From the NCBI GenBank assembly GCA_964345635.1, contig CAYFRM010000075.1, forward strand, positions 11,531-75,530: a stretch of DNA of 64,000 nt. The letters are read 5' to 3'. The first letter of the stretch is position 1; each line of letters begins with the position of its first letter. Positions 14,429-29,573 of the stretch are shown here, piece by piece. The notes beneath the pieces were generated by a model. The model made no database searches. It saw nothing but the letters and a program-made list of their open reading frames with translations, and was not told the DNA's origin. Source of the stretch: an uncultured Clostridia bacterium. Its GTDB lineage: Bacteria; UBA6262; WVXT01. The translations under genes and the position numbers were made by a program.

Positions 14429-14977
14429 TTGAGGTGCGGCAAAATGGAGAAGAAAATCAAGTCAAAAGCCCGGAATATAAAAATGTTAGGAATGGACGTA
14501 GATGGCGTACTAACACCGGGCGATATTGTGATCATGGAGTCGGGAGAGGAGATAAAGAGCTGGAACGTCAAAGACCGCATGGGATTCAATCTTGCCCGGC
14601 GATCGGGAAATTTGAAGTTTGCCTGGATTTCCGGAAGAGGGTGCAAGCAGGTTGAAAAAACGGCAGAAGACCTAAAGATAGAAGCCGTCCGTCTTAAGAG
14701 AATGGATAAGAATGAAGCCCTGCAGGAGATTTTGCAAGAATTTGCACTTAAAAGGGAAAACTTCGCTTATATTGGCGATGACCTTGTGGATATCCCCGTG
14801 CTAAAGAGGGCGGGACTCTCTTTCTGTCCCAAAGATGCGCCGCCAGAAGTAAAGGAAGTAGTGGATTACGTGACCAAAACGGAAGGTGGCCGGGGCGTCT
14901 TGCGGGAAGTGGTGGAACTGATACTGAAATTGCAGGGGAAATGGGAAGAAACTACCAGAGAGTACTGTAACAAATGA
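14429..14977 (+). CDS. kdsC: 3-deoxy-D-manno-octulosonate 8-phosphate phosphatase (HAD family)
   Basis: 182 aa; 'MLGMDVDGVLT' HAD motif I, 'IGDDLVDIPV' motif; alternative start ATG at 14444 possible. Confidence 0.8.
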   Translation: MRCGKMEKKIKSKARNIKMLGMDVDGVLTPGDIVIMESGEEIKSWNVKDRMGFNLARRSGNLKFAWISGRGCKQVEKTAEDLKIEAVRLKRMDKNEALQEILQEFALKRENFAYIGDDLVDIPVLKRAGLSFCPKDAPPEVKEVVDYVTKTEGGRGVLREVVELILKLQGKWEETTREYCNK

Positions 14978-15531
14978 AAAATAAAATTTTGCAGAACAGG
15001 AGTTTTCTATGGCTATTTGCTTTTCTCATTATTCTTGGTTTATCGAGTTGTGGAAAAGAAGAACCGCAAAAAACAAAGATAACCGGAGAAAAATCTTTCC
15101 CTGACCAGGCTATACAAGACTTTACCCTCACTCATACGAATCAGGGAGAAAAGGAGTGGGAGCTGGAGGCAGAGAGAGCAGAAGTTTATGATAAAGAAGG
15201 GAAGACAATTGTACACAAACTTAAACTCAAATTTTATGAGCAGGGAAAGGTTGCTTCCGTTCTGACTGCCAGGCGAGGAGAAATCAGTTCTCCCTCAGGG
15301 GACATCGAGGTGAAGGGAGACGTAGTAGTCACTTCTCAAAAAGAGAAAATGACGTTAAACACAAATAGCCTGAAATGGGATGCCCGGCGAAACAGAATAT
15401 TTACCGATGATTTCGTTCGCCAGGAAAAAGTTGACACAATAGTCACCGGGCAAGGATTGGAATCAGATCCGGAATTGGAAAGGCTGGTAATAAAAAAGGA
15501 CGTAAAAGTAATTCATAAATCGGAAAAATAA
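14974..15531 (+). CDS. lptC: LptC-like LPS export protein (N-terminal anchor/lipobox-like, beta-jellyroll region)
   Basis: 185 aa; position kdsC-lptC-lptA-lptB identical to E. coli yrbI-yrbK-lptA-lptB synteny; hydrophobic N-terminus with LSSCG. Confidence 0.55.
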   Translation: MKNKILQNRSFLWLFAFLIILGLSSCGKEEPQKTKITGEKSFPDQAIQDFTLTHTNQGEKEWELEAERAEVYDKEGKTIVHKLKLKFYEQGKVASVLTARRGEISSPSGDIEVKGDVVVTSQKEKMTLNTNSLKWDARRNRIFTDDFVRQEKVDTIVTGQGLESDPELERLVIKKDVKVIHKSEK

Positions 15532-15532
15532 C

Positions 15533-16192
15533 ATGAAGAAAAGTATTGCACTTTTTTTGCCGTTCGTTTTTGTAAGCGTAGTTCTAGCGGAGAACCCGAA
15601 ACAAACAGTGAACATCGCCGGAGAGAGGATGGAAGTATTGAAAAAAGGGGAAATCACCCGTTTTCTGGGGAATGTAAGATTGGTCAGGCACACAGATACA
15701 ATAACTTCCGATATAATGGAACGTTATGAGAAAAAAAACTACGTGGTAGGAAAAGGAAACGTGCATCTTACGGCCTATCCGAAAAAATCCTTAAGGATGG
15801 AAGCTTTTTCTGACCGATTAACTTATAACGTAGACGGCAAGAAAAGTGTTCTTACCGGCAATCCAAGGCTTATCCGAATCGATGAAGATAATCCCGAAGA
15901 CAGAATAAAAATGGAAGGACAGGTAATAAAGCTGTCGGGTAATGAGAAAAAAATAAATGTGCAGGGCGATACCAGGGTAGAACACGGAAGAATAACTGCT
16001 ACAGGCAAACTTCTCGACTACGATTATGAAATAAAGAAAATTGTTCTTACCGGAGATTCTCCCCGTATTTACCAGGATGACGAACAGGTAAAGGCTGACT
16101 ACGCGGCAGAAACCATTACCATATTCATCGATGAAGAGAGAGTCATTATGGAGGGGAATGTAAAAGCATCTATTTATCCCAAGAAACGGTAG
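15533..16192 (+). CDS. lptA: LPS transport periplasmic protein LptA (OstA-like N-terminal domain)
   Basis: 219 aa; signal peptide, repeated OstA-like beta-strand pattern, synteny before lptB. Confidence 0.7.
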   Translation: MKKSIALFLPFVFVSVVLAENPKQTVNIAGERMEVLKKGEITRFLGNVRLVRHTDTITSDIMERYEKKNYVVGKGNVHLTAYPKKSLRMEAFSDRLTYNVDGKKSVLTGNPRLIRIDEDNPEDRIKMEGQVIKLSGNEKKINVQGDTRVEHGRITATGKLLDYDYEIKKIVLTGDSPRIYQDDEQVKADYAAETITIFIDEERVIMEGNVKASIYPKKR

Positions 16193-16196
16193 TGTG

Positions 16197-16281
16197 ACCC
16201 TTTACGGGCATAAATCTCGTTAGAAATGGATGTTACAAATTCTCCTGAGGGAATTTCTAACGGGGTAAAGCCCTGTACCAC
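16197..16281 (+). repeat. Repeat family B, copy B3 (whole element inverted relative to B2)
   Basis: CCCTTTACGGGCATAAA-TCTCGTTAGAAAT-[GGATGTTACAAATTCTCCTGAGGGA]-ATTTCTAACGGGG-TAAAGCCCTGTACC. Confidence 0.85.
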
Positions 16282-16307
16282 GAAATGTTTATATTGCATG
16301 GTGAAAA

Positions 16308-17027
16308 ATGAGCCTATTGGCAAGAGGTCTGGTCAAAACCTATTCCCGTCGCAAAATTGTCGATGATGTAGGAATAGAGATAAATGCCGGTGAGATTGTG
16401 GGTCTGCTTGGTCCAAACGGGGCTGGTAAGACTACCACCTTTTATATGATTGTGGGTCTGCTTCGTCCGGACCAGGGCAGGATATTTCTGGAAGGAAAGG
16501 ACATAACGGAGCTGCCGATGTATAAACGAGCCAGACTAGGTATCGGCTATTTGTCCCAGGAACCTTCCATATTCAGGCGACTTTCGGTCAGGGAAAACAT
16601 ATGGGCCATTTTGGAAACAACCGCGTTAACGCAGTCCCAGAAGAAACAAAAATTGCAGAGTCTACTAGGAGAATTGGGAGTGGAGCATTTAGCGGAAAAT
16701 AAGGCCTGCTTACTATCCGGCGGGGAAAAAAGAAGAGTGGAAATTTCGCGTGCCCTGGTGACCACTCCTCACTACATTCTCCTGGACGAACCGTTTGTAG
16801 GCATTGATCCCATAACCACCGCGGAAATTCAACAGATTGTTGCCCGGCTCAAGAATAACGGATTGGGAGTGCTGGTTACAGACCACAACGTCAGAGAGAC
16901 ACTGGAAATCATCGATAGGGCCTATATTATGTACGAGGGAAAAATCTTGCTTTCGGGAACTGCGAAGGAGTTACTGGAATCGGAAGAAGCCCGAAAAGTT
17001 TACCTGGGCAAAGAATTCAGGATGTAA
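16308..17027 (+). CDS. lptB: LPS export ABC transporter ATP-binding protein
   Basis: 239 aa; Walker A 'GPNGAGKTT', signature 'LSGGEKRRVEI', Walker B 'ILLDEP'. Confidence 0.9.
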   Translation: MSLLARGLVKTYSRRKIVDDVGIEINAGEIVGLLGPNGAGKTTTFYMIVGLLRPDQGRIFLEGKDITELPMYKRARLGIGYLSQEPSIFRRLSVRENIWAILETTALTQSQKKQKLQSLLGELGVEHLAENKACLLSGGEKRRVEISRALVTTPHYILLDEPFVGIDPITTAEIQQIVARLKNNGLGVLVTDHNVRETLEIIDRAYIMYEGKILLSGTAKELLESEEARKVYLGKEFRM

Positions 17028-17037
17028 AAGCGAGAAA

Positions 17038-17066
17038 TTGACAAAATCATAAAAATATAGTTTAAT
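17038..17066 (+). promoter_or_regulatory. Candidate sigma70-type promoter (TTGACA-17-TTTAAT) upstream of ptsN
   Basis: Consensus -35 hexamer with 17-nt spacer in the 93-nt lptB-ptsN gap. Confidence 0.4.
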
Positions 17067-17120
17067 TGTAAAGCAAAAAAGCGAAAAAAAAGACCATTTT
17101 TCATAGGAGGAGAGAGAAAG

Positions 17121-17573
17121 ATGAAGATTATGGGGTTTCTTTGCAAGGAAGCGATTGAAGTCGATTTGCAGGCAATCAAGAAGAAAGAAGCGTTAAAAGA
17201 ACTAATTGATAAACTGATAGCCGCCAAGAGGATAAAGGAAAATGCAAGAGACAAAATACTGCAGGCTTTATTGGACAGAGAAAAATTAGGCTCCACGGGA
17301 ATTGGACAGGGGGTGGCGATTCCCCACGCAAAAACAGATAGAGTAGCGGATATCGTCTGCGCATTTGGTACGTCCAGCAAGGGAATAGAATTTAATGCAC
17401 TGGACGGAGAAAAGGTATACATAATTTTTCTCCTCATCGCTCCCCAGGAGTCAGCGGGAATGCATCTGAAGGTTCTGGCAAAGATATCCCGGCTTCTTAA
17501 AGATAAGTTCTTTCGCCAGGCACTACGAGAGGCAAAGGCGCCTGGTGAAGTAATTAAGATCATAAAGGAATAA
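17121..17573 (+). CDS. ptsN: PTS EIIA(Ntr)-type regulatory protein
   Basis: 150 aa; 'GIGQGVAIPHAKT' phosphorylation-site histidine motif; follows lptB as in lptB-(rpoN-hpf)-ptsN-rapZ loci. Confidence 0.75.
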   Translation: MKIMGFLCKEAIEVDLQAIKKKEALKELIDKLIAAKRIKENARDKILQALLDREKLGSTGIGQGVAIPHAKTDRVADIVCAFGTSSKGIEFNALDGEKVYIIFLLIAPQESAGMHLKVLAKISRLLKDKFFRQALREAKAPGEVIKIIKE

Positions 17574-17615
17574 GATACTTACTAGTTACGGGACGGCAAA
17601 AAGATTAATGGGTAA

Positions 17616-18566
17616 TTGACAATGGCAAGACTTCTGGTCAAAGAACTATTTGCAGAGAAAGGTGCGGATTTGGACTTGCATCTTGTGGCGGGGAAAGAAG
17701 GTTTAGACCGGAAAATAACCAGCTGGGAAATTCATAGTCTGGGACTTGCGCTATCCGGGAAGATGGGTGTTTTACCTCCCGGTCAACTTCAGATTTTAGA
17801 CCGGGAAGAACTCGATTATTTAAGAAAGTTAAATGTGCGGGAGAAGAGTATCGCGCTACGGGGAATCTTTTCCGGGGACGTTCCTTGTTTTATCGTTACC
17901 AGCAATTTTGTTCCTCCTCAAGGATTTGTAAAAATGGCCCGGAAAGCGAAAATACCGATCTTTAAGAGTCGCATATCTTTTTCTACATTTGTGAATCGCC
18001 TTTTGCCTTTTCTGGAAGATAAACTTACAGTCACTGAATCTGTTCCGGGAGTGATGGTCGAAGTTTATGGCCTGGGGATTCTGATATTGGGAGTAACCGG
18101 CATCGGCAAAAGCGAGTGCGCCCTGGAACTTGTCAATAGAGGACATCGATTAATTGCCGGGGAAGTGGTGGGAATTAAACAGCGCCGGAGGAATATTCTC
18201 ATCGGCTTTGCCCGGGAACCGATTCGTTACTATTTGGAAGTTCAGGGACTGGGAATAATAGACGTGGAAAGATTATTTGGAGCAAGCGCGGTAAGGAATT
18301 CAGCAAAGATTGACCTGGTAATTAGACTTGAGGAATGGGACAAAGCCAGGGACTACGAACTGCTCGGTTTCGATGAGAAGCATACGGCGATTCTGCAAGT
18401 CAGTGTTCCGGAACTGGTAATTCCTATTCGGCCGGGGAGAAACATAGCCAGCATCGTTGAAGTGGCAGCGATGAATCAGCGGCTAAGAAGAGAGGGATAT
18501 TCCGCAATTAGTAAACTGGATAGGGAAATAATAAAAATCACGCGGCAAAAAAGAAAAAACAAGTAG
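17616..18566 (+). CDS. hprK: HPr kinase/phosphorylase
   Basis: 316 aa; P-loop 'GVTGIGKSECALELV' and HprK C-terminal motifs. Confidence 0.85.
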   Translation: MTMARLLVKELFAEKGADLDLHLVAGKEGLDRKITSWEIHSLGLALSGKMGVLPPGQLQILDREELDYLRKLNVREKSIALRGIFSGDVPCFIVTSNFVPPQGFVKMARKAKIPIFKSRISFSTFVNRLLPFLEDKLTVTESVPGVMVEVYGLGILILGVTGIGKSECALELVNRGHRLIAGEVVGIKQRRRNILIGFAREPIRYYLEVQGLGIIDVERLFGASAVRNSAKIDLVIRLEEWDKARDYELLGFDEKHTAILQVSVPELVIPIRPGRNIASIVEVAAMNQRLRREGYSAISKLDREIIKITRQKRKNK

Positions 18567-18634
18567 CTCGGGATTTTCTTCGCTCGCTGCACCACAAAGC
18601 TTTGCGTTGGGGAAAGGAAGGGAAATAGAAATAT

Positions 18635-19507
18635 ATGGCCAAGGGTAACTTTGTCATAGTAACCGGGCTTTCGGGAGCAGGGAGAAGTACGGCCCTGAAG
18701 AATCTCGAGGATTTGGGATATTTCTGCGTGGATAATCTACCCACTACGCTGATACCTAAATTTGCCGAAATTTGTTTACAGTTAAAATATAAGATAAAGA
18801 AAGTCGCTTTGGGCATTGACATCAGGGAAGGGGATTTTTTGGACGACCTCTTTGGTTCCTTGGAGGAGCTGGGGAAAATGGGGTTCGTTTATCAGATTCT
18901 TTTCCTGGAAGCCAGTAATTCCGTCCTGGTTAGAAGATATAGTGAAACCCGCAGGAAACATCCTCTGGATACGGAAGGCAGAAGCATGCTGGAAGTTATC
19001 GTCAAGGAGAGGAAGCGACTTATGGGCATAAAAGAACGGGCTGATAAGATTATTGATACTACGGCCCTCACGCCTCAGGAATTCAAACAAGTAATCTTCT
19101 CCAGTTTCAAAGAGGCAGCGAAACCGGATACGATGAGTGTTAGCTTAGTCTCTTTTGGCTATAAGTACGGTATCCCGGTGGACGCCGATCTGGTAATCGA
19201 CACTCGCTTTCTGCCCAATCCCCATTATGTGGAAAGACTGAGACCGTCAACGGGGAACGACCCGGAAGTTACTCGTTTCGTCTTGAAGTCGACCGTTACC
19301 CAGAAGTTTTTGAGAAAATATTTTGGATTATTGAAATTTTTGATACCTTACTATATCAGGGAAGGAAAGTCTTATTTGACCATAGCTGTGGGGTGCACGG
19401 GAGGCCGCCATCGTTCAGTAATTATTGTTAACGAATTAAAGAAATTTCTAAAGAAGAAATATCCCGTTAAGACTCAGTACCGCGATATAGAGAAAGGAAC
19501 AGCTTAA
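18635..19507 (+). CDS. rapZ: RNase adapter protein RapZ (YhbJ)
   Basis: 290 aa; Walker A 'VTGLSGAGRSTAL', C-terminal 'GCTGGRHRSV' RapZ signature. Confidence 0.85.
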   Translation: MAKGNFVIVTGLSGAGRSTALKNLEDLGYFCVDNLPTTLIPKFAEICLQLKYKIKKVALGIDIREGDFLDDLFGSLEELGKMGFVYQILFLEASNSVLVRRYSETRRKHPLDTEGRSMLEVIVKERKRLMGIKERADKIIDTTALTPQEFKQVIFSSFKEAAKPDTMSVSLVSFGYKYGIPVDADLVIDTRFLPNPHYVERLRPSTGNDPEVTRFVLKSTVTQKFLRKYFGLLKFLIPYYIREGKSYLTIAVGCTGGRHRSVIIVNELKKFLKKKYPVKTQYRDIEKGTA

Positions 19508-19521
19508 GAACGGATTGACAG

Positions 19522-19947
19522 ATGATTGGATTCATAATCATGACACACGGCGATTTTGGCCGGCAATTGGTTAAAGCAGCGGAAATTATTTTGGGGGAGC
19601 AAAAGGAAGTATGGGCAATATCGTTGCATGAAAATGACGGGTTGGGTACATTAACCGAAAAAATAGAGAAGATACTGAAGGAGGAAAACAGACGGTCGGA
19701 GGGTAAAATCATTTTCGTAGATATGTTCGGAGGTACGCCAGCAAACGCCAGCCTAAAGTTTGTTAAAGAGGAAAAGATGGAAATCATTAGTGGCGTTAAC
19801 CTGCCGATGTTAATTGCGGGCATAAACTATCGGCAGTCTCTGCCCATTAAAGAATTGGCCGAGCGCATCCGCCAGAAGGGTAAAGAGAGCATTCTCGACG
19901 TAAAACAAAAGTTTGTTAATAAAATTTCAAAGGAGAAAAATAAGTAA
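19522..19947 (+). CDS. PTS mannose/sorbose-family EIIA component
   Basis: 141 aa; 'IIMTHGDFG' with phospho-His of EIIA-Man. Confidence 0.75.
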   Translation: MIGFIIMTHGDFGRQLVKAAEIILGEQKEVWAISLHENDGLGTLTEKIEKILKEENRRSEGKIIFVDMFGGTPANASLKFVKEEKMEIISGVNLPMLIAGINYRQSLPIKELAERIRQKGKESILDVKQKFVNKISKEKNK

Positions 19948-20435
19948 TGGGCGTGGTGCTGGTACGAATTGATGACCGATTGATTCACGGTCAAGTAGTT
20001 GAGAACTGGATGAAATTCCTCAAAATCGATCACGTGGTTGTAGTTAACGATTTTGTTGCCAGTGACCGAATGCAAAGAACTCTGTTTTCAATGGCAGTTC
20101 CAGACCACATTAGGATATCTATTTTGGCTATAGCCGAGGCAAGAAAAGCAATACGGAATGGCCGATTCCAAGAACAGAGGGCGATGCTTCTCCTCGTCTC
20201 ACCCGAGGATGTCCTGAATTTGATCAAGGGAGGAGTTAGAATAAGAGAGGTAAATGTGGGAGGAATGCACTATTCGCCTGAAAAGAAACAGATCCTCAAA
20301 GCCGTATCAGTCGGCAAAAAAGACGTTCGCGCCTTTCAGGAACTGGACAAACTGGGAGTCCGTTTAGAGGCAAGAATGGTTCCCGATGATGAGAAAATTG
20401 ACATAATGAAAATCATCAACAGAGAGAGATGGTAA
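19947..20435 (+). CDS. PTS mannose/sorbose-family EIIB component
   Basis: 162 aa; 'RIDDRLIHGQVV' EIIB-Man active-site His motif. Confidence 0.8.
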   Translation: MGVVLVRIDDRLIHGQVVENWMKFLKIDHVVVVNDFVASDRMQRTLFSMAVPDHIRISILAIAEARKAIRNGRFQEQRAMLLLVSPEDVLNLIKGGVRIREVNVGGMHYSPEKKQILKAVSVGKKDVRAFQELDKLGVRLEARMVPDDEKIDIMKIINRERW

Positions 20436-20472
20436 TTGTGCAAGGCATAGTTTTCGGAAAGGTCTCAGGAAT

Positions 20473-22650
20473 ATGAAGAAAATAAACTTCGTGTTGGGTA
20501 TTCATAACCATCAGCCGGTCGGTAATTTTGCAAACATTTTCGAGGAGGCTTACCAGAAGGCGTACCTTCCCTTTGTGGAAATTTTGACAAAACATCCCGG
20601 CGTAAAAGTCACATTCCATTTTAGCGGGGTCCTTCTGGAGTGGATTGTTAAACATCATCCAGAATTTATTTCCATAATAAAAAACCTCTTACAAACGGAG
20701 CAGATTGAACTTATGACCGGTGGCTACTACGAGCCAATTCTGGCTATGTTATACGATCGTGATGGAATCGGTCAAATATTGAAATTGAACAAATACATCA
20801 AAGATTTATTTGATTACAAACCAAGAGGGATGTGGCTGGCGGAACGTGTCTGGGAGCCGCACCTGGCAAAGTCAATTTCCCAGGCAGGTGTAGAATATAC
20901 TGTCATTGACGACTTGCCTTTCCAGTCCGCCGGGCTTTTTGAGGAAGAACTTTTCGGGTACTACCTCACCGAGGAACAAGGTTATCCGCTGAAAGTTTTT
21001 CCCATTAGTGAAAGGCTGCGATTTCTCATACCTTTCCAACCCGTGGAAGAAGTTATTAAGTATTTTAAATCCCAGGCTACGGAGAAGGAAGAGAGACTGG
21101 CAGTAATGGCTGATGACGGGGAGAAATTTGGCATCTGGCCCGGAACCCATGAGCTGTCGTACGAACAGAATTGGCTGGAACAGTTCTTCAGCGAGCTGGA
21201 GAAAAATAGAAAATGGATTAAAATGTTTACGTTTTCCGAATATATTTCACAGTTTGAACCTAAAGGAAGAATATATCTTCCTACGGGTTCCTATTCCCAG
21301 ATGATGGAATGGGTCTTGCCCACCAAGGCGAGAAAGGAATTCAATGATATCCAGAGAGAAGTGGAAAAATTGCCTCAGAGCGAACGCTATGCAAGGTTTT
21401 TGAAAGGAGGCTTCTGGAGAAACTTCTTTGTGAAGTATGCTGAAAGCAACTTGATGCAGAAGAAGATGCTTCTGGTCAGTAACAAGATTTTTAAGGCAAT
21501 GCAAAACTTGCAAACGTCGCCGGCCGGATCCGGTAAGGAAAATACGAAACTTCCCGATTGGTTGGAAGAAGCGAGGAATGAACTGTGGAAAGGGCAGTGC
21601 AACTGCGCTTACTGGCACGGCGTTTTCGGAGGACTATACTTTCCCCACCTCAGAAGAGCGGCTTATGAACATCTTATTAATGCGGAAAAAGCTGTTGACG
21701 GCAAAGGCCAATCAGGTTCCCAATCTGTGGAAGCGCAAGAGTTAGATTTTGATTTGGATGGAAATCCGGAGCTTTTGGTCAGTACTCCCTTACTCAATGC
21801 TTATTTCAGGCCGTCTGCGGGAGCGTCTCTTTTCGAATTGGATTATAAACCCCGGAACCTGAATCTTTTGACTACTCTGACTCGCAGGAAAGAAGCCTAC
21901 CACGAAGAAATTATTCGTGCCAGTCTTTTTGATTCCCGGGCTAGCGAGGAGAAAAAAGGCGTAAAATCAATTCACAATATGGAAAAAGTAAAGGACAGGA
22001 ACTTGGCAAAATATCTTCACTATGATTGGTACGAGAGGGTATCTTTGGTGGACCATTTCCTGCATCCCGATACGGAGATTTTTGATTTCTCCACTTGCCA
22101 GTACGGGGAACAGGGAGATTTCGTCGACCAACCTTATATGTACAGGATTGAAGCAGGCGGGATAAACTTTGTCAGGGAAGGATTCGTGTGGGTAGGAGAT
22201 TTCCAGCAACCCGTGAAAGTGGAGAAAAAAATAACAGTGTCGGCAGACGCGGGGGAGATTCTCGCTATTTATAAAATTGTCAATAAAGGCGAGAACTCCG
22301 CAGAATTATGGTTTGGCTCTGAATTTAATTTCTCTTTTTCCTCGCCAGAGGATAAAGAATGTTATTACTCGGTCCCCGATAGAAAAGAGAGGAAATATTT
22401 CTCTTCATTTGGAGAAATTTCTGACTTGAAGGAAATCAGTATGCACGATGGGCATTACGGAGTAAACGTGATTTTGCAATTCAACCCCGATTGTCGCTTG
22501 TGGCATTTTCCCATAGAGACAATTTCGGAGGGGGATGCGGCCTACGAGCGTATGTATCAGCAATCGGTTGTATTTCCTCACTGGAAATTGAATTTAAGAT
22601 CAAAAGAAGAACGGACTATAACGTGTAAACTAAAAATCGCAAGTATATAA
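20473..22650 (+). CDS. Glycoside hydrolase family 57 protein (alpha-glucan-active; amylase/4-alpha-glucanotransferase-like)
   Basis: 725 aa; N-terminal 'GIHNHQPVGNF' and 'WLAERVWEP' GH57 signatures. Confidence 0.8.
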   Translation: MKKINFVLGIHNHQPVGNFANIFEEAYQKAYLPFVEILTKHPGVKVTFHFSGVLLEWIVKHHPEFISIIKNLLQTEQIELMTGGYYEPILAMLYDRDGIGQILKLNKYIKDLFDYKPRGMWLAERVWEPHLAKSISQAGVEYTVIDDLPFQSAGLFEEELFGYYLTEEQGYPLKVFPISERLRFLIPFQPVEEVIKYFKSQATEKEERLAVMADDGEKFGIWPGTHELSYEQNWLEQFFSELEKNRKWIKMFTFSEYISQFEPKGRIYLPTGSYSQMMEWVLPTKARKEFNDIQREVEKLPQSERYARFLKGGFWRNFFVKYAESNLMQKKMLLVSNKIFKAMQNLQTSPAGSGKENTKLPDWLEEARNELWKGQCNCAYWHGVFGGLYFPHLRRAAYEHLINAEKAVDGKGQSGSQSVEAQELDFDLDGNPELLVSTPLLNAYFRPSAGASLFELDYKPRNLNLLTTLTRRKEAYHEEIIRASLFDSRASEEKKGVKSIHNMEKVKDRNLAKYLHYDWYERVSLVDHFLHPDTEIFDFSTCQYGEQGDFVDQPYMYRIEAGGINFVREGFVWVGDFQQPVKVEKKITVSADAGEILAIYKIVNKGENSAELWFGSEFNFSFSSPEDKECYYSVPDRKERKYFSSFGEISDLKEISMHDGHYGVNVILQFNPDCRLWHFPIETISEGDAAYERMYQQSVVFPHWKLNLRSKEERTITCKLKIASI

Positions 22651-22699
22651 TTGAGTTTGAGGTGTTTATCCCGATCGATATCGCCTCTGGATCGTCGTA

Positions 22700-23338
22700 A
22701 TGATTGCTGAAATCCTTTTGGTTAGTTTCCTGGGAGGACTGTTAAGTTTGGATGTGAGTGCCTGGGGACAGATAATGGTCTCCCGACCTGTTATTTCAGG
22801 GGCGATCATAGGTTTATTGTTAGGGGATCTCAAGACAGGATTAATAATCGGTGTTCTTTTAGAACTGGTGTGGATCAATGTGATATCGGTGGGCGCAGCC
22901 ATTCCGCCTAATGCGACAATAGTAGCTGTCGCTTGCGCGGCTCTGGTAATCTTAACTGAGAGAACGCTCCCTGTGGGTAATAACTTTCAGGGTTCTTACA
23001 GAATGGTCGTCCTGACCCTGACGATGCCCCTGGGAGAAATTTTTAGAAGAATAGACGTTAAGCAGAGAAAACTGAATGCAAGTTTCGGGCACTATTTGGA
23101 TAGAGAAATCATTAAGGGTAATTTTAGGGCCGTGGAAAAAGTCAACTATTTAAGCTTATTTCTGTTTTTTCTTAAAGGATTAGTTTTCTCTCTGGTCGCA
23201 ATTAGCTTGGGTTTATATATTCTACCTAAACTATTTTCTTGTTTACCGTTTGCCATATTAATAGGTTTGAACTTTGCGTACAGGCTGTTACCGGCTCTGG
23301 GTTTGGCAATAGCTTTCAACACATTCAGGGGTTTGTAG
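22700..23338 (+). CDS. PTS mannose/sorbose-family EIIC component
   Basis: 212 aa polytopic membrane protein with EIIC-Man N-terminal pattern. Confidence 0.7.
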   Translation: MIAEILLVSFLGGLLSLDVSAWGQIMVSRPVISGAIIGLLLGDLKTGLIIGVLLELVWINVISVGAAIPPNATIVAVACAALVILTERTLPVGNNFQGSYRMVVLTLTMPLGEIFRRIDVKQRKLNASFGHYLDREIIKGNFRAVEKVNYLSLFLFFLKGLVFSLVAISLGLYILPKLFSCLPFAILIGLNFAYRLLPALGLAIAFNTFRGL

Positions 23339-23359
23339 ACACTGATTTTGGGATTGTGA

Positions 23360-24139
23360 ATGGGGATGCATAAGCGCATGAGGAATAGAATAATCAACAA
23401 GCTCGACTTATGGCGTCTGTTCTGGCGGTCCTTCTGTCTGCAAGCCGTATGGAATTTCGAGCGGATGCAAAATCTGGGATTTCTTTACATATTGGCACCG
23501 GTTTTGAATAAACTATATCCTGAAAGAGAGAAAAGGATTCAGTCTTACCGGCGACATTTGGAGTTCTTCAATACCCACCCATATTTTGCAAATGTTCTGG
23601 CCGGGATAGTCGCGCGTATGGAGGAAGAGATGGCGGAAGGAGGAGAAGTCAATCCGGAAGAGATTAGCGCAGTAAAAATGAGCATGGGCGGAGCATTGGG
23701 AGGCATTGGCGATTCGCTGTTTTGGGGGGCGTGGCGACCCTTTACTGCACTGATAGCCTGCGTTCTGGTGATTGTATATTTGAGAAGGTGGGAAGGAGCC
23801 TGGCTGGCGCCGGTATTTTTTCTTTTTCTCTATAATTTTTTGCACTTTCATACGCGCATTAAGGGAGTGATGGAAGGTTACGAGAGAAAGACCAAAGTAG
23901 TAAGACTTCTGAAGAAGATGTATTATCTTCGCACAATATGGAGTAGCCATATTATTGGTTTGGCTCTCGTTTTACTTACTGTTTTGGTATTAACGTTTCG
24001 GGACTGGCAAGCGATAGAAAGACTGTACTTTTTGGCATTCTTTCTCTCTATTGTGTTACTGAATCGCTGGCGAATTTCTTCCGCAAAGCTTCTGTATTTG
24101 CTCGTCGGAATTTCCTGTGCGGGAGCTTATATATTTTGA
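23360..24139 (+). CDS. PTS mannose/sorbose-family EIID component
   Basis: 259 aa; 'FWRSFCLQAVWNFERMQNLGFLY' EIID signature. Confidence 0.75.
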   Translation: MGMHKRMRNRIINKLDLWRLFWRSFCLQAVWNFERMQNLGFLYILAPVLNKLYPEREKRIQSYRRHLEFFNTHPYFANVLAGIVARMEEEMAEGGEVNPEEISAVKMSMGGALGGIGDSLFWGAWRPFTALIACVLVIVYLRRWEGAWLAPVFFLFLYNFLHFHTRIKGVMEGYERKTKVVRLLKKMYYLRTIWSSHIIGLALVLLTVLVLTFRDWQAIERLYFLAFFLSIVLLNRWRISSAKLLYLLVGISCAGAYIF

Positions 24140-24154
24140 TATCGGGAAACATAA

Positions 24155-24421
24155 ATGATACAAAAAAATTTTAAGGTCAAGAATAAGTTAGGAATGCACG
24201 CAAGACCTGCGGCACTTCTCGCCCAGACTGTTGCTAAATTCCAATCAAAAGTATCCATAATTAAAAATGGCCAGGAAGTCGAGGGAGATAGTATTTTGGG
24301 AATCATGATGTTAGCGGCAGAGTTCGGCTCCGAGATAACGGTAATTGTTAATGGAAGCGACGAAAAGGAAGCAATAGAAAAAATCGAAGATTTATTTAAG
24401 AAGAAATTTGATGAGGAGTAG
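24155..24421 (+). CDS. ptsH: Phosphocarrier protein HPr
   Basis: 88 aa; 'GMHARPAALL' His15 motif and Ser46 region 'GDSILGIM'. Confidence 0.85.
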   Translation: MIQKNFKVKNKLGMHARPAALLAQTVAKFQSKVSIIKNGQEVEGDSILGIMMLAAEFGSEITVIVNGSDEKEAIEKIEDLFKKKFDEE

Positions 24422-24426
24422 AAATT

Positions 24427-26145
24427 ATGTTAAAGGGAATTGCTGCTTCGCCGGGTATTGTCATCGGGCGAGCTTTCCTTCTGGAAGAAGAGGAATTCTA
24501 TATTTCCAAGAGATCAATTGACCCTGCGGACATAAAACAGGAGATTATTCGCTTTCGCAAAGCAGTTGCCGAGACAAGAGAGGAAATGGACGGAATAAGG
24601 CAGAAGGTTTTGAAACAACTGGGCAAGAGACACGTACGCCTCTTTGATGCCTATCTTCTGATTTTGCAGGATCCTATGCTCCGCAATGACGTGACGAAGA
24701 TGGTTACGGAACAAGGAGTAAATGCCGAATATGCTCTGCAGATGGTAATTGATAAGATAACAAAGACGTTTAATATAATAGACGACGGGTACCTGCGAGA
24801 CCGCGGCCGCGACATTCTGGATGTGGGGAAAAGAGTGCTGAAGCGCCTACTGGGCAGAGAAAGGGAAGAACTGGCCACTCTGGCCTCACCTGTAATTGTA
24901 ATCGCTCATAATCTTACTCCTGCAGACACGATCGCTATGCGCAAAGAGAACGTGATAGGGTTTGCCACGGATATTGGAGGAAGGACTTCGCACACTGCGA
25001 TTATGGCGCAGTCTTTGGAAATTCCTGCTGTGGTCGGTTTGAAAAATGTAACCAAGAAAGTAAAGCCAGGTGACACAATAATCGTAGACGGAATAGAAGG
25101 GATTGTGGTTATCGACCCGGATTCGGTGACGGTGGAAAATTATGAACGGCAAAAGCTAAAATATTCCAATGTGGAAGAAGCGTTGAAAAAGCTGACAGAT
25201 CTTCCCGCAGTTACGTCCGATGAGCACGCGATTGAATTGCAGGCAAACATCGAAGTTCCGGAAGAGATTCCCTCGGTTCACGCTCATGGAGCAACAGGAA
25301 TCGGGTTATTCCGCACCGAGTATATCTATTTAAATCGAGTCGACCTGCCTCCGGAAGAAGAGCAATATCAACAATATGTCTCTGTCGCGCAAAAAATGAT
25401 GCCCTATCCGGTAATAATCAGAACGATGGATCTGGGAGCAGATAGATTTGTGGGCGAATTTGGCATTTCTCCCGAGCGAAATCCGTTTATGGGTTTGCGG
25501 GCAATTCGGCTCTGCTTCCGATATCCCCATGTGTTTAAGACTCAATTGAGAGCCATTCTTCGCGCCTCAGCGGAAGGGAATTTGAAGATAATGTATCCTA
25601 TGATATGTTGCGTGGAAGAATTGAGACACGCCAATGAGCTGCTGAAAGAAGTGAAGAATGAGCTAAGAGAAGAAAAAATATCTTTCGACGAAAATATAGA
25701 AGTAGGGGTAATGATTGAGACTCCTTCTTCTGCCTTGATTGCGGATATTTTGGCCCAGGAAGCAGATTTCCTGAGCATTGGAACAAACGATTTAATACAA
25801 TATACCCTGGCCGTAGACCGCGTTAACGAAAATGTCACTCACCTTTATAGACCGTTGCATTTATCCATTTTGCGCCTGGTCAAAAGAATAATAGATGCCG
25901 GACATCAAGCCGGCAAGCGCGTGGGAATGTGCGGGGAAATGGCTGCCGACCCTTCTTTCACCAAGATTCTCCTGGGCATGGGTCTTGATGAATTCAGTAT
26001 GTCTCCGTTATCCATCCCCAAAATTAAGAAAATCGTGCGCGCCACGAACCTGACCGCAGCCCGGGAACTAGCCAATCAGGTTTTAGCTGCTTCAAAACAG
26101 GAAGAAATAGACAAAATCATAGGGAAATTCCAAACCCTACCATAA
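24427..26145 (+). CDS. ptsI: Phosphoenolpyruvate-protein phosphotransferase (PTS enzyme I)
   Basis: 572 aa; 'GGRTSHTAIMA' phospho-His motif, PEP-utilizing domain 'GLFRTEY'. Confidence 0.9.
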   Translation: MLKGIAASPGIVIGRAFLLEEEEFYISKRSIDPADIKQEIIRFRKAVAETREEMDGIRQKVLKQLGKRHVRLFDAYLLILQDPMLRNDVTKMVTEQGVNAEYALQMVIDKITKTFNIIDDGYLRDRGRDILDVGKRVLKRLLGREREELATLASPVIVIAHNLTPADTIAMRKENVIGFATDIGGRTSHTAIMAQSLEIPAVVGLKNVTKKVKPGDTIIVDGIEGIVVIDPDSVTVENYERQKLKYSNVEEALKKLTDLPAVTSDEHAIELQANIEVPEEIPSVHAHGATGIGLFRTEYIYLNRVDLPPEEEQYQQYVSVAQKMMPYPVIIRTMDLGADRFVGEFGISPERNPFMGLRAIRLCFRYPHVFKTQLRAILRASAEGNLKIMYPMICCVEELRHANELLKEVKNELREEKISFDENIEVGVMIETPSSALIADILAQEADFLSIGTNDLIQYTLAVDRVNENVTHLYRPLHLSILRLVKRIIDAGHQAGKRVGMCGEMAADPSFTKILLGMGLDEFSMSPLSIPKIKKIVRATNLTAARELANQVLAASKQEEIDKIIGKFQTLP

Positions 26146-26212
26146 TTTCTCCAATGTAGGGGTTTGATTTATCGAACCCGACTGCAGCGAGCAGTAAGGA
26201 ATTAATGCCGAG

Positions 26213-27229
26213 ATGAGCGAAATGTTTAGATATCTGGAAGATTTTCCAGTTCAATGCGAACAGGCAGTCCAAATTGCCAGGAAATTTCCCGTTGATGTAA
26301 AAAGATACGATTCCATCCAACAGGTAGTGGTCTGTGGAATGGGAGGCTCGGCGGCAGGTGGCGACCTGTTGAAGTCCTATCTAGAGGGAGAAGCAGCTAT
26401 TCCCATTGAAGTTAACAGGGATTATCTCCTTCCGCAGTATGCGGGAAAGAGAACCTTGGTATTCGCCATCAGCTATTCCGGTAATACGGAAGAGACCCTA
26501 TCCGCCTATCAGGATGCTCTTTCTCGCTCGGCAAAGATTATAGCTATTACCAGCGGGGGAAAGTTAAAAGAACTGTGTGAGAAGGACGGCATTGATGTAA
26601 TCGAAATCGTAAAAGGCATGCCGCCACGGGCAACTTTTGGGTATCTATTTTTTCCCATGGTTACCCTGCTGGAAAGATTGGGATTGATTGACTCTAAAGA
26701 AAAAGAGATTAAAGAGACAATTCAGAATTTGAGAATGCTGTGTAAGCAATATAACCCTGAGAGTAAAACCAATTTAGCAAAGGATATATCAGAGACAATA
26801 AAAGGGCATCTTCTTCTCATATATGCTCCCCGGCATCTGGCTGCCTGTGCTGTTCGCTGGAAGAACCAATTAAATGAGAATAGCAAGGTTATGGCTTTCT
26901 TCAGCCTCTTGCCGGAAATGAACCATAATGAGATTGAAGTCTGGGCCAGTAGTAGCGAATTTACTAAGAAATTCTACTTGATTTTTTTGAGAGATAATGC
27001 GGAAAACGAAAGAATTAAAAGTAGAATATTGATTACAGAAGGTATTCTTAAAGACAAAGTAGCAGGCATCCAGCACGTGAGTTCCAGCGGGGAATCTCTC
27101 CTATCTCGTTTGCATTCTTTGATATATCTTGGTGATTGGGTGAGCACCTATTTAGCTTTAACCAACTCCATAGACCCCATTCCCACCCCCATGATTAACT
27201 TACTGAAAAAACAGCTCTCCCAGGCGTAA
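26213..27229 (+). CDS. Bifunctional phosphoglucose/phosphomannose isomerase (archaeal-type SIS-domain PGI/PMI)
   Basis: 338 aa; 'VVVCGMGGSAAGGDLL' and 'AISYSGNTEET' SIS motifs. Confidence 0.7.
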   Translation: MSEMFRYLEDFPVQCEQAVQIARKFPVDVKRYDSIQQVVVCGMGGSAAGGDLLKSYLEGEAAIPIEVNRDYLLPQYAGKRTLVFAISYSGNTEETLSAYQDALSRSAKIIAITSGGKLKELCEKDGIDVIEIVKGMPPRATFGYLFFPMVTLLERLGLIDSKEKEIKETIQNLRMLCKQYNPESKTNLAKDISETIKGHLLLIYAPRHLAACAVRWKNQLNENSKVMAFFSLLPEMNHNEIEVWASSSEFTKKFYLIFLRDNAENERIKSRILITEGILKDKVAGIQHVSSSGESLLSRLHSLIYLGDWVSTYLALTNSIDPIPTPMINLLKKQLSQA

Positions 27230-27248
27230 TATTCAGCCACATTTTTCC

Positions 27249-27277
27249 CTTGACAATTATCAATTTTTATGATATCT
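27249..27277 (+). promoter_or_regulatory. Candidate promoter (TTGACA-17-TATCTT) upstream of HIT/rpsU/mpg
   Basis: Consensus -35 with 17-nt spacer in 114-nt gap; followed by a perfect 18-nt palindrome at 27305-27322. Confidence 0.35.
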
Positions 27278-27343
27278 TAAAAGTTTGATATTTAGACTAT
27301 GTTCTGCCTTAATTTTAAGGCAAAACAAAGGTCCGGGAGAGAA

Positions 27344-27688
27344 ATGGAAGGGTGTCTTTTTTGTGACATCGTAAGCAAGAAAATCCCGGCAAGTGTCGTT
27401 TATGAGAATGACCGGGTAATAGCCTTCAGGGACATTAATCCCCAGGCCCCGGTGCACCTTTTGATCGTGCCTAAAAAGCACATTCCCACAATCCTAGACT
27501 TAAAGTCAGAAGATAAGGATCTAATAGGAGAAATCTACCTGGTTGCCCAAGAATTGGCTTCCCGGGAGAGTATCGCGCAATGTGGCTTCCGTATTATAGC
27601 AAACTGCAACGCCGATGCCGGCCAGGCAGTGTTCCACGTACATTTCCACTTGCTGGGGGGTCGAAAATTGGGCTGGCCTCCGGGCTGA
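27344..27688 (+). CDS. HIT-family hydrolase (Hint-like)
   Basis: Start at 'MEGCLFCDIV'; histidine triad 'HVHFHLL'. Confidence 0.75.
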   Translation: MEGCLFCDIVSKKIPASVVYENDRVIAFRDINPQAPVHLLIVPKKHIPTILDLKSEDKDLIGEIYLVAQELASRESIAQCGFRIIANCNADAGQAVFHVHFHLLGGRKLGWPPG

Positions 27689-27726
27689 AACCTAACGAGA
27701 CCGATTCACGTAAGGGGTGAAAACAT

Positions 27727-27942
27727 GTGACCGAAGTAAAAGTCAGAGAAGATGAATCTATAGACGCGGCTTTACGGCGATTTAAGCGCGAATGCGAAAG
27801 AGCGGGGCTTATGACGGAAATAAAAAGAAGGGAATATTATGAAAGTCCCAGCGTTCGCAGAAAGAGAAAAGCCGCCGAGGCAAAAAGGAAACAGAGGAGA
27901 AGGCAGCTAAAGCTTTTGAATCGTTTAAAAAGAAAAAGATAA
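27727..27942 (+). CDS. rpsU: 30S ribosomal protein S21
   Basis: GTG start; 71 aa '[30 protein letters not shown]' bS21 signature. Confidence 0.85.
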
Positions 27943-28587
27943 TTGCTGAGTAGACTATCACGAAAATTCTATTCCCGCAACACGGGAATCGTAGCCAAAG
28001 AATTATTGGGTAAGACCCTTGTCCACAAAACGGATGAGGGCATAATTTCGGGTAAAATTGTCGAAACAGAAGCCTATCTTGGCCAGAAGGACCCGGGAAG
28101 CCATGCTTACAGGGGAGTGACCAAGCGCAACCGGATAATGTTTGGTCCGGCAGGAAAAGCGTATGTCTATCTGGTATACGGGAACCACTATTGCTTTAAC
28201 GTGGTCACGGAAAAGGATGGTGAAGCCGGCGCGGTTCTAATCAGGGCCTTAGAACCCCGGGAAGGCATAAGACTAATGAAAAAACACAGAAGAATAGACG
28301 GCCCCCTGACTTGCCTCACCAATGGCCCGGGCAAGTTGACCAAGGCTTTAGGCATTACGGGGTCGATGAACGGGATTGACTTAACGGGAAACAGACTGTT
28401 TGTCTCTCAAATTGCTTCCCCAAAGAATAAAAGCGCCTCAAAAGACTCTAACGTCATCGCTACGGGTCGTGTGGGCATAAGAAGAGGAAAGAATTTTCCC
28501 TATCGGTATTATATTGAAGGAAGTAAGTTCGTATCCCGCACCATCGTCATTCGCAAAAAACCACTCACCCGGGATAGTCGTGAATAG
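27943..28587 (+). CDS. DNA-3-methyladenine glycosylase (Mpg/AAG family)
   Basis: 214 aa; 'GKIVETEAYLG..DPGSHAY..GPAGKAYVYLVYGNHYCFNVV' AAG-family motifs. Confidence 0.8.
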   Translation: MLSRLSRKFYSRNTGIVAKELLGKTLVHKTDEGIISGKIVETEAYLGQKDPGSHAYRGVTKRNRIMFGPAGKAYVYLVYGNHYCFNVVTEKDGEAGAVLIRALEPREGIRLMKKHRRIDGPLTCLTNGPGKLTKALGITGSMNGIDLTGNRLFVSQIASPKNKSASKDSNVIATGRVGIRRGKNFPYRYYIEGSKFVSRTIVIRKKPLTRDSRE

Positions 28588-28619
28588 CCTGAGGGGGAGA
28601 TTAGAAAGGAAACGATAAT

Positions 28620-29573
28620 TTGAACCTTACAGAATTTTACAAATTTGTTGTAGAAGAAGGAATTTCTCAGGACCCTCGCGGGGTGGAGAGAGTTAAACTC
28701 GATATGAAGAGGAGAAAAGAAGAGTTTGAAAAAATGGAAGGAGCGAAAAAGAGAGGGTTTGACCAGGAAACCCTTACCAATCCTTACAGCGATACCAGAA
28801 TATTAAACGATACCAAAAAAGAAGTAAAAAACATTCTCGTAGGAATCGATATCGAAACCCCGGAACTACTACTGGCCGATCGCCTGAAGTCGCAAGGGAA
28901 AAAGATCGATTTAGTCCTCGCTCACCATCCCGAGGGCCGCGCCTATGCCAATTTCTATGAAGTTATGGGCATGCAAGCAGACATTCTTAACAAGTATGGT
29001 GTTCCTATAAACATAGCGGAGGACCTTCTGGCAAAGAGAATGAAGGATGTCAGCCGCAAGGTAATGCCGGTAAACCACTTCCGGGCAGTGGATGCGGCAG
29101 AGTTACTCGATATTTCCTTTATTTGTGTGCATACTCCCGCAGATAATTTTGTAACTTCGTATTTACAGGAGTTAATGGATAAGAAAGAACCGGAAAGAGT
29201 AGAAGATACTATTGGGCTGTTGCAGGACGTACCGGAATATGAACAGGCCACCGCGAGAGGCAGTGGACCTAAGGTCACGGTTGGTTCTGAAAAGAGGCGG
29301 GCAGGAAAGATATTCGTGGATATGACCGGTGGCACCGAAGGGTCGGAAGAAGCTTTGGAAAAACTGAGTGATTCGGGAGTGGGAACCATAGTGGGAATGC
29401 ATATGAGCGAGAAACATTATCATAACGCAGAAAAATTCCACATAAATGTAGTAATTGCCGGTCATATGGCCTCCGATACTCTGGGGCTTAATCTACTGTT
29501 AGACCGGGCTATAAAGAAGTTCGGCCCTCTGAACGTCATTTCCTGCTCAGGTTTTTACCGCGTCGATAGATAG
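28620..29573 (+). CDS. Nif3-family dinuclear metal-centre protein (YbgI/YqfO-like)
   Basis: 317 aa; 'DLVLAHHPEG' and C-terminal 'IAGHMASDTLGLN' resemble Nif3 metal-binding motifs. Confidence 0.55.
   Translation: MNLTEFYKFVVEEGISQDPRGVERVKLDMKRRKEEFEKMEGAKKRGFDQETLTNPYSDTRILNDTKKEVKNILVGIDIETPELLLADRLKSQGKKIDLVLAHHPEGRAYANFYEVMGMQADILNKYGVPINIAEDLLAKRMKDVSRKVMPVNHFRAVDAAELLDISFICVHTPADNFVTSYLQELMDKKEPERVEDTIGLLQDVPEYEQATARGSGPKVTVGSEKRRAGKIFVDMTGGTEGSEEALEKLSDSGVGTIVGMHMSEKHYHNAEKFHINVVIAGHMASDTLGLNLLLDRAIKKFGPLNVISCSGFYRVDR

Follow-up and report, generated by a model that had tools for sequence, protein, structure and literature searches.

A 64-kb stretch of DNA from an uncultured Clostridia bacterium (contig CAYFRM010000075.1, positions 11,531 to 75,530 of the forward strand) carries a widespread variant of the diderm "envelope plus carbon-status" super-cluster. 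This variant has incorporated a cytoplasmic enzyme of glycoside hydrolase family 57 (GH57), of the type of the Thermococcus litoralis 4-alpha-glucanotransferase (TLGT), and a terminal phosphoglucose/phosphomannose isomerase (PGI/PMI). We refer to the whole stretch of 64,000 nucleotides as the window. The block within it is a run of 11 genes on the + strand (17121-27229): ptsN, hprK, rapZ, the genes for EIIA and EIIB of a mannose-type (Man) phosphotransferase system (PTS), the GH57 gene, the genes for EIIC and EIID, ptsH, ptsI, and the PGI/PMI gene. The first-pass annotation of this DNA had described the same arrangement, with ptsN-hprK-rapZ followed by a Man-PTS split by GH57 and then by ptsH-ptsI-PGI/PMI, and its open reading frames (ORFs) and all its domain assignments held. 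On balance, we favor the view that alpha-glucan turnover is co-expressed with the HPr/HprK core of the PTS and is perhaps controlled by the relay of enzyme I (EI), HPr, and HprK. The backbone of the cluster is already known, also without GH57; what is new is the presence of GH57 within it across about ten phyla.

The GH57 enzyme and the phosphotransferase proteins

Genes were called from an ORF list together with Pfam and NCBIfam profile matches. The GH57 gene (20473-22650, + strand) encodes a protein of 725 residues that matches PF03065, PF09094, and PF09095, all above their cut-offs, and that has the three-domain plan of the 4-alpha-glucanotransferase group: a (beta/alpha)7 barrel, a middle domain made of helices, and a beta domain at the C terminus. 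It aligns with TLGT (PDB 1k1w) over residues 1 to 699 with an E-value of 1e-157. The nucleophile Glu124 (in WLAERVW) and the proton donor Asp215 (in ADDGEKFG) correspond to Glu123 and Asp214 of TLGT and are invariant in an alignment of 19 homologues, and the motifs HNHQP and QCNCAYWHG are also kept. Martinovicova and Janecek expect of a GH57 enzyme five conserved sequence regions, with a catalytic Glu in region 3 and an Asp in region 4 (PMC6037648); by this definition the window protein is predicted to be a true enzyme and not a "-like" protein without the catalytic residues. Its ratio of nonsynonymous to synonymous substitutions (dN/dS) is 0.06, computed, like the other ratios given here, against a relative with 76% GH57 identity and with synonymous sites saturated. 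Because the catalytic motif starts at residue 11 and the protein has no predicted hydrophobic segment, we place the enzyme in the cytoplasm. The first-pass description of an intracellular 725-residue GH57 protein between IIAB and IICD was sound, and the protein is full length and of TLGT type.

The window enzyme and TLGT align from end to end and share, besides the three domains and the catalytic Glu and Asp, the motifs HNHQP, WLxERVW, DDGEKFG, and QCNxAYWHG. The window enzyme differs in its length (725 versus 659 residues, with three insertions), in its origin from a mesophilic-looking bacterial genome (44% G+C), and in being encoded within a PTS operon. Thermococcus is not known to have a PTS. 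The likeness extends to other characterized GH57 4-alpha-glucanotransferases, those of Pyrococcus, T. kodakarensis, Archaeoglobus, and Dictyoglomus, and the specificity of the window enzyme is presumably of the 4-alpha-glucanotransferase type. Close archaeal relatives carry out both disproportionation (EC 2.4.1.25) and hydrolysis (bioRxiv 10.1101/2023.08.25.554913), and TLGT-type enzymes set glucose free during the disproportionation of maltooligosaccharides (PMC9582752; bioRxiv 10.1101/2023.08.25.554913).

Every active-site residue of the phosphorelay is in place. HPr (ptsH, 24155-24421, on the + strand like all genes of the block; PF00381, and above the TIGR01003 cut-off) has His15 (GMHARPA) and Ser46 (GDSILGIM), while HprK (17616-18566; TIGR00679, 313 bits against a cut-off of 240) is full length, with its N- and C-terminal domains and the P-loop GVTGIGKSE. 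The kinase P-loop together with His15 and Ser46 of HPr makes up an HprK/P-HPr(Ser46) module. EI (ptsI, 24427-26145; PF05524, PF00391, and PF02896) is of the sugar type and has no GAF domain. EIIA-Man (19522-19947; PF03610) carries its phosphorylatable His in MTHGDFG, and its stop codon overlaps the start of the EIIB gene by one base; EIIB, of the Man/sorbose type (19947-20435; PF03830, E-value 1.6e-51; TIGR00854, 164 against 163.6), carries its phosphorylatable His in RIDDRLIHGQV. The first gene of the block encodes a PtsN-like EIIA (PTS_EIIA_2; 17121-17573; PF00359, E-value 2.8e-39) with the active-site His69 in GVAIPHAK. Its position and this His fit PtsN, of which it may be the orthologue; its NCBIfam scores are 99.8, below the PtsN equivalog cut-off of 138.7, and 109.5, just above the cut-off of 103.5 of a fructose-IIA domain model. 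RapZ (YhbJ/YvcJ family; 18635-19507; PF03668 and PF22740; NF003828, 355 against 244) has a Walker A motif. The block ends, as first annotated, with a gene (26213-27229) whose product, judged from its domains and scores, is a bifunctional PGI/PMI of the archaeal type (PF10432, E-value 1e-50, with a SIS domain; TIGR02128, 282.5 against 213.9; NF006426, 401.9 against 295).

The length of HprK varies among relatives (related contigs bear labels such as L001). The protein has 314 to 316 residues in the window, in L085 (4985-5929), and in L086 (4995-5939). In L001 (7627-8166), which belongs to the same lineage as the window, it has 179 residues and consists of the catalytic domain alone, with no room for an N-terminal domain; the short form is also present in NC10 loci.

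All four parts of a Man-type EII were found (PF03610, PF03830, PF03609, and PF03613). The first-pass annotation had called this system complete, which is correct for the set of components and not for EIIC, which is shortened at its C terminus. EIIC (22700-23338, 212 residues; positions 3 to 195 of the 233 in PF03609) matches residues 22 to 202 of ManY and ends 55 to 65 residues short of canonical IICs, so that the last helices of the V-motif scaffold are absent. In the Man family, IIC and IID each have a pair of hairpins, one amphipathic helix, and five transmembrane helices, arranged as a Core plus a V-motif; the Core, which binds the sugar, is built from the N-terminal hairpins together with TH1 and TH2, and the scaffold of the trimer from TH3 to TH5 (PMC11403280). 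According to this layout, the part missing from EIIC is scaffold and not the sugar-binding site. The core motifs of EIIC are conserved in the alignment, and its structural model (pLDDT 85) matches ManY in fold over the latter's first ~200 residues (TM score of 0.72 to ManY in 6k1h). EIID (23360-24139, 259 residues; PF03613; match to ManZ with an E-value of 1.5e-37) keeps all family-invariant residues, and the sole difference from canonical ManZ in the alignment is a shorter periplasmic loop; its model (pLDDT 87.8) matches ManZ over the whole length (TM score of 0.72 to 6k1h_C, 276 columns). We judged retention of the sugar site on family-invariant residues and domain layout.

Both proteins score far under the NCBIfam cut-offs for the Man family (EIIC, 73.9 against 339.85 in TIGR00822; EIID, 151 against 292.75 in TIGR00828), and by sequence we assign them to a divergent Man-PTS subfamily. 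This subfamily with short IIC and IID, a predicted permease only, is widespread in uncultured diderm phyla. The dN/dS values are 0.13 for EIIC and 0.085 for EIID, and IIB is likewise under purifying selection. Whether IIC and IID are degenerate had been named at first annotation as a point that would decide the matter; these ratios and the confident models matching ManY and ManZ indicate that they are not. We considered and ruled out that the two genes are pseudogenes, given their dN/dS values and their conservation across phyla. A tie between the shortening of EIIC and the presence of GH57 was also ruled out, since there are short IICs without GH57 (L137 and L140) and long IICs with it (L098 and L101). 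In comparison with E. coli ManXYZ and the Man-PTS of lactic acid bacteria (PDB 6K1H, 7VLX, and 8HFS), IIA to IID are all here with their phosphorylatable His residues; however, IIC is short, IID lacks their periplasmic loop, IIA and IIB are separate proteins, and the genes are grouped with hprK, ptsH, and ptsI instead of forming a stand-alone man operon.

Linkage of GH57 to phosphotransferase genes

The gene order of the window was identical in six of six contigs of its lineage (L001, L085, L086, L089, L090, and L091), in which the GH57 proteins are 72 to 85% identical to that of the window. To look further afield we scanned GTDB species genomes with a GH57 profile, which yielded 80 loci with 38 to 48% identity. 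The GH57 protein of the window itself had no entry in the contig index. A locus was counted as linked when PTS genes lay at most 6 kb from GH57 (tblastn with the window proteins), and an unlinked locus was taken as informative when at least 5 kb were available on both sides. Among the GH57 loci from other phyla, 15 of the 46 informative ones were PTS-linked, the other 34 of the 80 being too short to judge. The comparison of gene order in relatives, suggested at first annotation as a check, therefore came out in favor of the linkage, both within the lineage and elsewhere. As this order is repeated in six contigs belonging to one lineage and in many other phyla, the block is not a product of chance. 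We estimate the chance of a gene landing at most 6 kb from a handful of single-copy genes in a genome of 2 to 4 Mb to be well below 1%, and the association is far above this level.

Phylum names are given here as the submitters' labels, and those of the linked loci include Elusimicrobiota, Firestonebacteria, Krumholzibacteriota, Ignavibacteria, Bacteroidota, Zixiibacteriota, NC10, Omnitrophota, and Hydrogenedentes. GH57 is found inside this cluster in about ten labeled phyla, which are distantly related and mostly uncultured, and its commonest slot is between IIB and IIC. Loci from Elusimicrobiota/Endomicrobiales, Firestonebacteria, and Krumholzibacteriota have the order IIA-IIB-GH57-IIC-IID-ptsH-ptsI. 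Two further lineages, with a GH57 identity of 48%, have lptB-hpf-ptsN-hprK-(rapZ)-IIA-IIB-GH57-IIC-IID-ptsH-ptsI-PGI/PMI. The order is hprK-IIA-IIB-mlaD-GH57 in Ignavibacteria and hprK-mlaD-GH57 in a Bacteroidota-labeled bin and in Zixiibacteriota. GH57 is also kept in clusters without permease genes, namely, hprK-rapZ-IIA-GH57-ptsH in NC10, hpf-hprK-GH57-ptsH-ptsI in Hydrogenedentes, and ptsN-yvcK-GH57-ptsH-ptsI-PGI/PMI in Omnitrophota. PGI/PMI follows ptsI in L051, L066, L075, L087, L088, and L098 as well. One Elusimicrobiota locus (L017, 4754-12127) holds three GH57 genes within a single relay cluster, in the order DUF4912, GH57 branching enzyme, IIA, IIB, a second GH57 branching enzyme, and a TLGT-type GH57.

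Approached from the PTS side, by a metagenome search with the IID profile and sorting of the loci by tblastn, IID-ptsH-ptsI loci outside the lineage of the window had GH57 between IIB and IIC in six cases, four from the scan (L092, L096, L098, and L101) and two from direct look-up (L087 and L088). GH57 was absent from all 46 canonical manXYZ loci that lack ptsHI.

Several observations on individual loci stand beside these counts. An IIC that is 91% identical to that of the window bears the NCBI label Elusimicrobiota. In a Deltaproteobacteria-labeled locus (L060, 2114-14202), GH57 lies at the opposite end of the cluster, directly 5' of kdsC, and genes including lptCAB, rpoN, hpf, ptsN, hprK, and rapZ follow; the neighborhood is the same and the slot a different one, and this locus was not counted as linked. 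An MlaD-domain protein of ~300 residues is encoded 3' of hprK or IIB and directly 5' of GH57 in Ignavibacteria, Bacteroidota-labeled, and Zixiibacteriota loci (L002:8904-9800, L019:9108-10004, and L055:9084-9998). YvcK/CofD-like proteins of 407 to 421 residues with a hydrophobic N-terminal extension of ~100 residues occur in Firestonebacteria and Omnitrophota clusters (L007:7823-9046, L059:961-2211, L051:637-1902, and L075:5362-6618), and these extended forms may be membrane anchored; the YvcK/CofD-like protein of Endomicrobiales (L022:8111-9085) has 324 residues and no such extension. His392 of GH57 was tried as a signature of the PTS link, being enriched in linked (94%) over unlinked (42%) proteins, and was rejected since it is also present in archaeal TLGT.

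The surrounding super-cluster has been described before. An association of kdsCD, lptABC, rpoN, hpf, PTS-Ntr, and yhbJ is a conserved context in diderms, and the mannose PTS has been proposed to be part of the ancestral association (Francke et al. 2011, PMC3162934, who cite this proposal). The genome context of the relay was also analyzed by Comas et al. 2008 (PMC2405797). This neighborhood further includes npr and, outside the enterobacteria, is joined by hprK and a mannose-type PTS (PMC3162934; PMC2405797). Neither PMC3162934 nor PMC2405797 mentions glycogen, a glycoside hydrolase, or an alpha-glucan enzyme, and in the open-access literature we found no description of a linkage of GH57 to PTS, HPr, hprK, or rapZ genes, Elusimicrobium included. 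The window shares with the rpoN-neighborhood super-cluster the order kdsD-kdsC-lptC-lptA-lptB-ptsN-hprK-rapZ-IIA-IIB-...-IIC-IID-ptsH-ptsI; it differs in the absence of rpoN and hpf, in the position of GH57 between IIB and IIC, and in the PGI/PMI gene after ptsI. A Geoalkalibacter contig has lptB-rpoN-hpf-ptsN-hprK-rapZ-IIABCD-ptsHI, with short IIC and IID and without GH57.

The likeness to the E. coli rpoN operon, minus rpoN and hpf, had been pointed out at first annotation and was confirmed. With sequences from related loci as queries, tblastn gave no match to rpoN, hpf, yvcK, or mlaD anywhere in the window, and because of this negative result we take the absence of rpoN and hpf to be real for these 64 kb. 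The accompanying statement that hprK had been gained here has to be withdrawn: hprK in this slot is the usual state outside the enterobacteria, as in Geoalkalibacter.

Transcription signals and surroundings of the block

The gaps between the 11 genes range from -1 to 68 bp. A consensus scan found no terminator-like site in the spacers of the block, all + strand matches falling within genes, and an Rfam scan found no RNA element inside the operon; the counts of promoter and terminator matches in the consensus scan were at the level of shuffled sequences and are uninformative. In the lptB-ptsN spacer there is a candidate sigma-70-type promoter (TTGACA-17-TTTAAT; 17038-17066, + strand). It had been proposed at first annotation and is now supported by conservation in four relatives (the window, L001, L085, and L086): in the alignment its two hexamers and the sequence adjoining them do not vary, the remaining spacer is variable, and synonymous sites among these relatives are saturated. 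The consensus scan missed it because the -10 hexamer has no A at position 2. The top + strand site of that scan was another promoter-like motif (TTGACA-17-TATCTT with a TG; 27250-27278, + strand), which precedes the HIT gene and is conserved in the same four sequences. Conserved promoter motifs were found only 5' of ptsN and 3' of PGI/PMI, and the ptsI-PGI spacer is not conserved. From these signals we predict that ptsN through PGI/PMI is likely a single transcription unit.

The ptsI-PGI spacer is much longer in L001 (15790-15960) and L085 (13695-13905) than in the window, and in L001 it contains two copies of a near-repeat, GGGGACAGG-TA-CTTT, which could represent a hairpin or a small repetitive element. 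In L087 the end of GH57 overlaps the start of IIC by 8 bases, and in L022 the IIB ORF, called from its first start codon, ends 4 bases beyond the start of GH57.

Almost all genes of the window are on the + strand, including all sizeable ORFs within 13382-31474. Directly 5' of the block lie kdsD (SIS+CBS), kdsC, lptC, lptA, and lptB (13382-17027, + strand; assigned by Pfam), the part of the cluster devoted to lipopolysaccharide (LPS) precursors and LPS transport, and their order is common to the window, L001, L085, L086, and L082. The last of these genes, lptB (16308-17027, + strand), ends just 5' of the block; the spacer between it and ptsN, 93 bp long, contains neither rpoN nor hpf, and the same holds in L001, L085, and L086. 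Further 5' (1-13107), an LPS-core block on the + strand encodes two GT9 heptosyltransferases, a Kdo/WaaP-type kinase, several GT4/GT2 transferases, and KdsA.

On the other side of the block, a unit with HIT, rpsU, mpg, an NIF3-like gene, dnaG, and rpoD (27250-33185, + strand) starts after the conserved promoter-like motif 3' of PGI/PMI and corresponds to the classical rpsU-dnaG-rpoD operon into which extra genes have been inserted. Within it, rpsU (27727-27942) is below the 80-residue threshold of the original ORF list. The HIT gene probably starts at an ATG near 27344 (MEGCLFC...) and not at 27299, because the ORF from 27299 opens only 21 bases past the conserved motif and the protein of the relatives has 114 residues. 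The region from 33352 to 49133 encodes a class-II-type ribonucleotide reductase, an aldehyde:ferredoxin oxidoreductase, an Fe-alcohol dehydrogenase, an aldehyde dehydrogenase, a DUF401 membrane protein, an Ldh_2-family dehydrogenase, and an ADP-forming acyl-CoA synthetase, a gene content that suggests an anaerobic fermenter. The sole Rfam matches in the window are an RNase P RNA (bacterial class A, 168 bits; 55570-55859) and tRNA genes at 38627-38700 and 53146-53217.

Alpha-glucan turnover and the HPr/HprK relay

Why would a diderm bacterium keep an alpha-glucan enzyme in the middle of its PTS genes? We hypothesize that ptsN through PGI/PMI would be expressed as one unit from the promoter at 17038-17066. 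EI would transfer phosphate from phosphoenolpyruvate (PEP) to His15 of HPr, and HPr~P would pass it to PtsN and also, via EIIA-Man and EIIB-Man, to a hexose bound by IIC/IID. HprK/P would phosphorylate Ser46 of HPr according to the energy or glycolytic state and so throttle the relay. GH57 made from the same transcript would disproportionate or cleave alpha-1,4-glucan (glycogen or maltodextrin), and PGI/PMI would interconvert the resulting hexose-6-phosphates with fructose-6-phosphate. The use of storage glucan or maltodextrin would then track the same promoter and may also track the same phosphorylation state. Within this scheme the main tie of GH57 seems to be to the HPr/HprK core, by way of co-expression and possibly direct control by HPr or EIIA, and less to the permease, because clusters devoid of genes for IIB, IIC, and IID still have it beside hprK or ptsH. 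Its place next to hprK or ptsH in these permease-less clusters also strengthens the case for control of alpha-glucan metabolism by the phosphorelay.

Other results weigh against such a coupling. The linkage is not universal, as 31 of the 46 informative GH57 loci have no PTS neighbor. Ten IID-ptsH-ptsI loci outside the lineage of the window have IIB adjoining IIC and no GH57 (eight from the scan, the Geoalkalibacter contig, and a Gemmatimonadota-type contig). Neighbor-joining trees of GH57 and IID are star-like, with clusters that have GH57 and clusters that lack it interleaved in the IID tree; with trees of this shape, a single ancient insertion followed by inheritance and loss is indistinguishable from repeated recruitment. 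An alignment comparison of PTS-linked with unlinked GH57 proteins found no residue or insertion that separates them and hence no sequence pointer to a docking or phosphorylation site. In addition, a gene order inherited from an ancestor can be maintained in the absence of direct functional coupling.

The main rival reading, which we hold to be possible though less than probable, is that the link is metabolic. GH57, acting like MalQ or TLGT, would free glucose from maltodextrin or glycogen, and the Man-EII would use PEP to phosphorylate this glucose, from the inside or once it has leaked out and been recaptured; the Man-EII would also handle imported glucose and mannose, and PGI/PMI would turn glucose-6-phosphate and mannose-6-phosphate into fructose-6-phosphate. 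This would account for the finding that six or more lineages have a GH57 gene exactly between those of IIB and IIC and that at least five have PGI/PMI after ptsI, and it is consistent with the presence of all relay histidines, the conserved sugar-binding cores of IIC and IID, the release of glucose by TLGT-type enzymes (PMC9582752; bioRxiv 10.1101/2023.08.25.554913), and the downstream oxidoreductase, dehydrogenase, and acyl-CoA synthetase genes (aldehyde:ferredoxin oxidoreductase, Fe-alcohol dehydrogenase, aldehyde dehydrogenase, and the ADP-forming synthetase), which fit a fermenter. However, GH57 persists without IIB, IIC, and IID genes in NC10, Hydrogenedentes, and Omnitrophota, so the permease is not its obligatory partner, and the transport competence of an IIC without part of the trimer scaffold is uncertain. 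It is also conceivable, and in our judgment quite unlikely, that only history holds these genes together: GH57 would have been inserted once into an ancient, stable super-operon and carried along since, with the shared promoter as its sole link to the PTS. The super-cluster is indeed exceptionally stable across diderm phyla (PMC3162934 and the loci described here) and also holds functionally mixed genes (hpf, yvcK, and mlaD, with lepA nearby); GH57 has no PTS-specific signature, and the interleaving in the IID tree suggests easy loss. Yet the linkage outlasts rearrangement and the loss of IIB, IIC, IID, rapZ, rpoN, and hpf at loci where GH57 is 39 to 48% identical to that of the window, and extra alpha-glucan genes have joined the cluster in L017. 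Without selection for co-regulation, such persistence and such additions would be difficult to account for.

The first-pass annotation had suggested that Man-type systems of this kind often have regulatory rather than transport roles. This did not hold up as a general statement, since the documented cases of such roles are confined to systems that have no Man component other than EIIA-Man, such as that of Brucella (PMC2937029), and do not include a complete IIABCD. The incomplete regulatory PTS of alphaproteobacteria such as Brucella consists of EI-Ntr, NPr, PtsN, EIIA-Man, and a short HprK (PMC2937029). In both systems, a Gram-negative cell combines PtsN, EIIA-Man, and HprK with a carrier of the HPr type; the window has, in addition, IIB, IIC, and IID, an EI without the GAF domain, and a full-length HprK. 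We consider it highly improbable that the EII of the window is purely regulatory, with no transport and with IIC and IID as remnants that serve as sensor or scaffold. The loss from IIC of the last V-motif helices, which form the trimer scaffold of ManYZ (PMC11403280), the scores of IIC and IID far under the Man-permease cut-offs, and the relatives of the cluster in Geoalkalibacter would agree with it, as would the precedent of regulatory systems with EIIA-Man only. On the other hand, IIB, IIC, and IID are under purifying selection and would be needless in a regulatory-only system; IID retains the ManZ fold in full along with all family-invariant residues, IIC keeps its core motifs, and the loss of C-terminal helices from IIC varies by lineage independently of GH57.

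A stronger form of coupling, in which GH57 is a direct partner of the relay, appears rather doubtful to us. GH57 might be bound or phosphorylated by HPr, EIIA-Man, or EIIB-Man, so that glucan breakdown would be switched by PEP/pyruvate and the state of HprK, or the short IIC/IID might act as a PEP-dependent membrane hexokinase for glucose released by GH57. The only documented mechanism of this kind is in E. coli, where glycogen phosphorylase is both a binding partner and a phosphorylation target of HPr (Di Domenico et al. 2026, PMC13324651; PMC11046441). The proposed likeness is that of a PTS phosphocarrier acting on an enzyme of alpha-glucan breakdown; the target in E. coli is a GT35 phosphorylase whose gene is not linked to ptsH, whereas here it would be a GH57 enzyme.

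What HprK, HPr(Ser-P), and EIIA of the mannose type do in Gram-negative bacteria is poorly defined beyond a few proteobacteria. If the co-expression of alpha-glucan turnover with the HPr/HprK core that we favor is a matter of transcription only, it would supply a rule for annotation, by which a TLGT-type "DUF1926" GH57 next to hprK or ptsH belongs to a housekeeping carbon-status operon, and no new mechanism. If GH57 is a direct partner of the relay, in either way, it would represent the long-sought physiological output of HprK, HPr, and EIIA-Man in Gram-negative phyla without CcpA. The linkage of GH57 to these genes thus names a candidate output of the relay, the turnover of storage glucan or maltodextrin.

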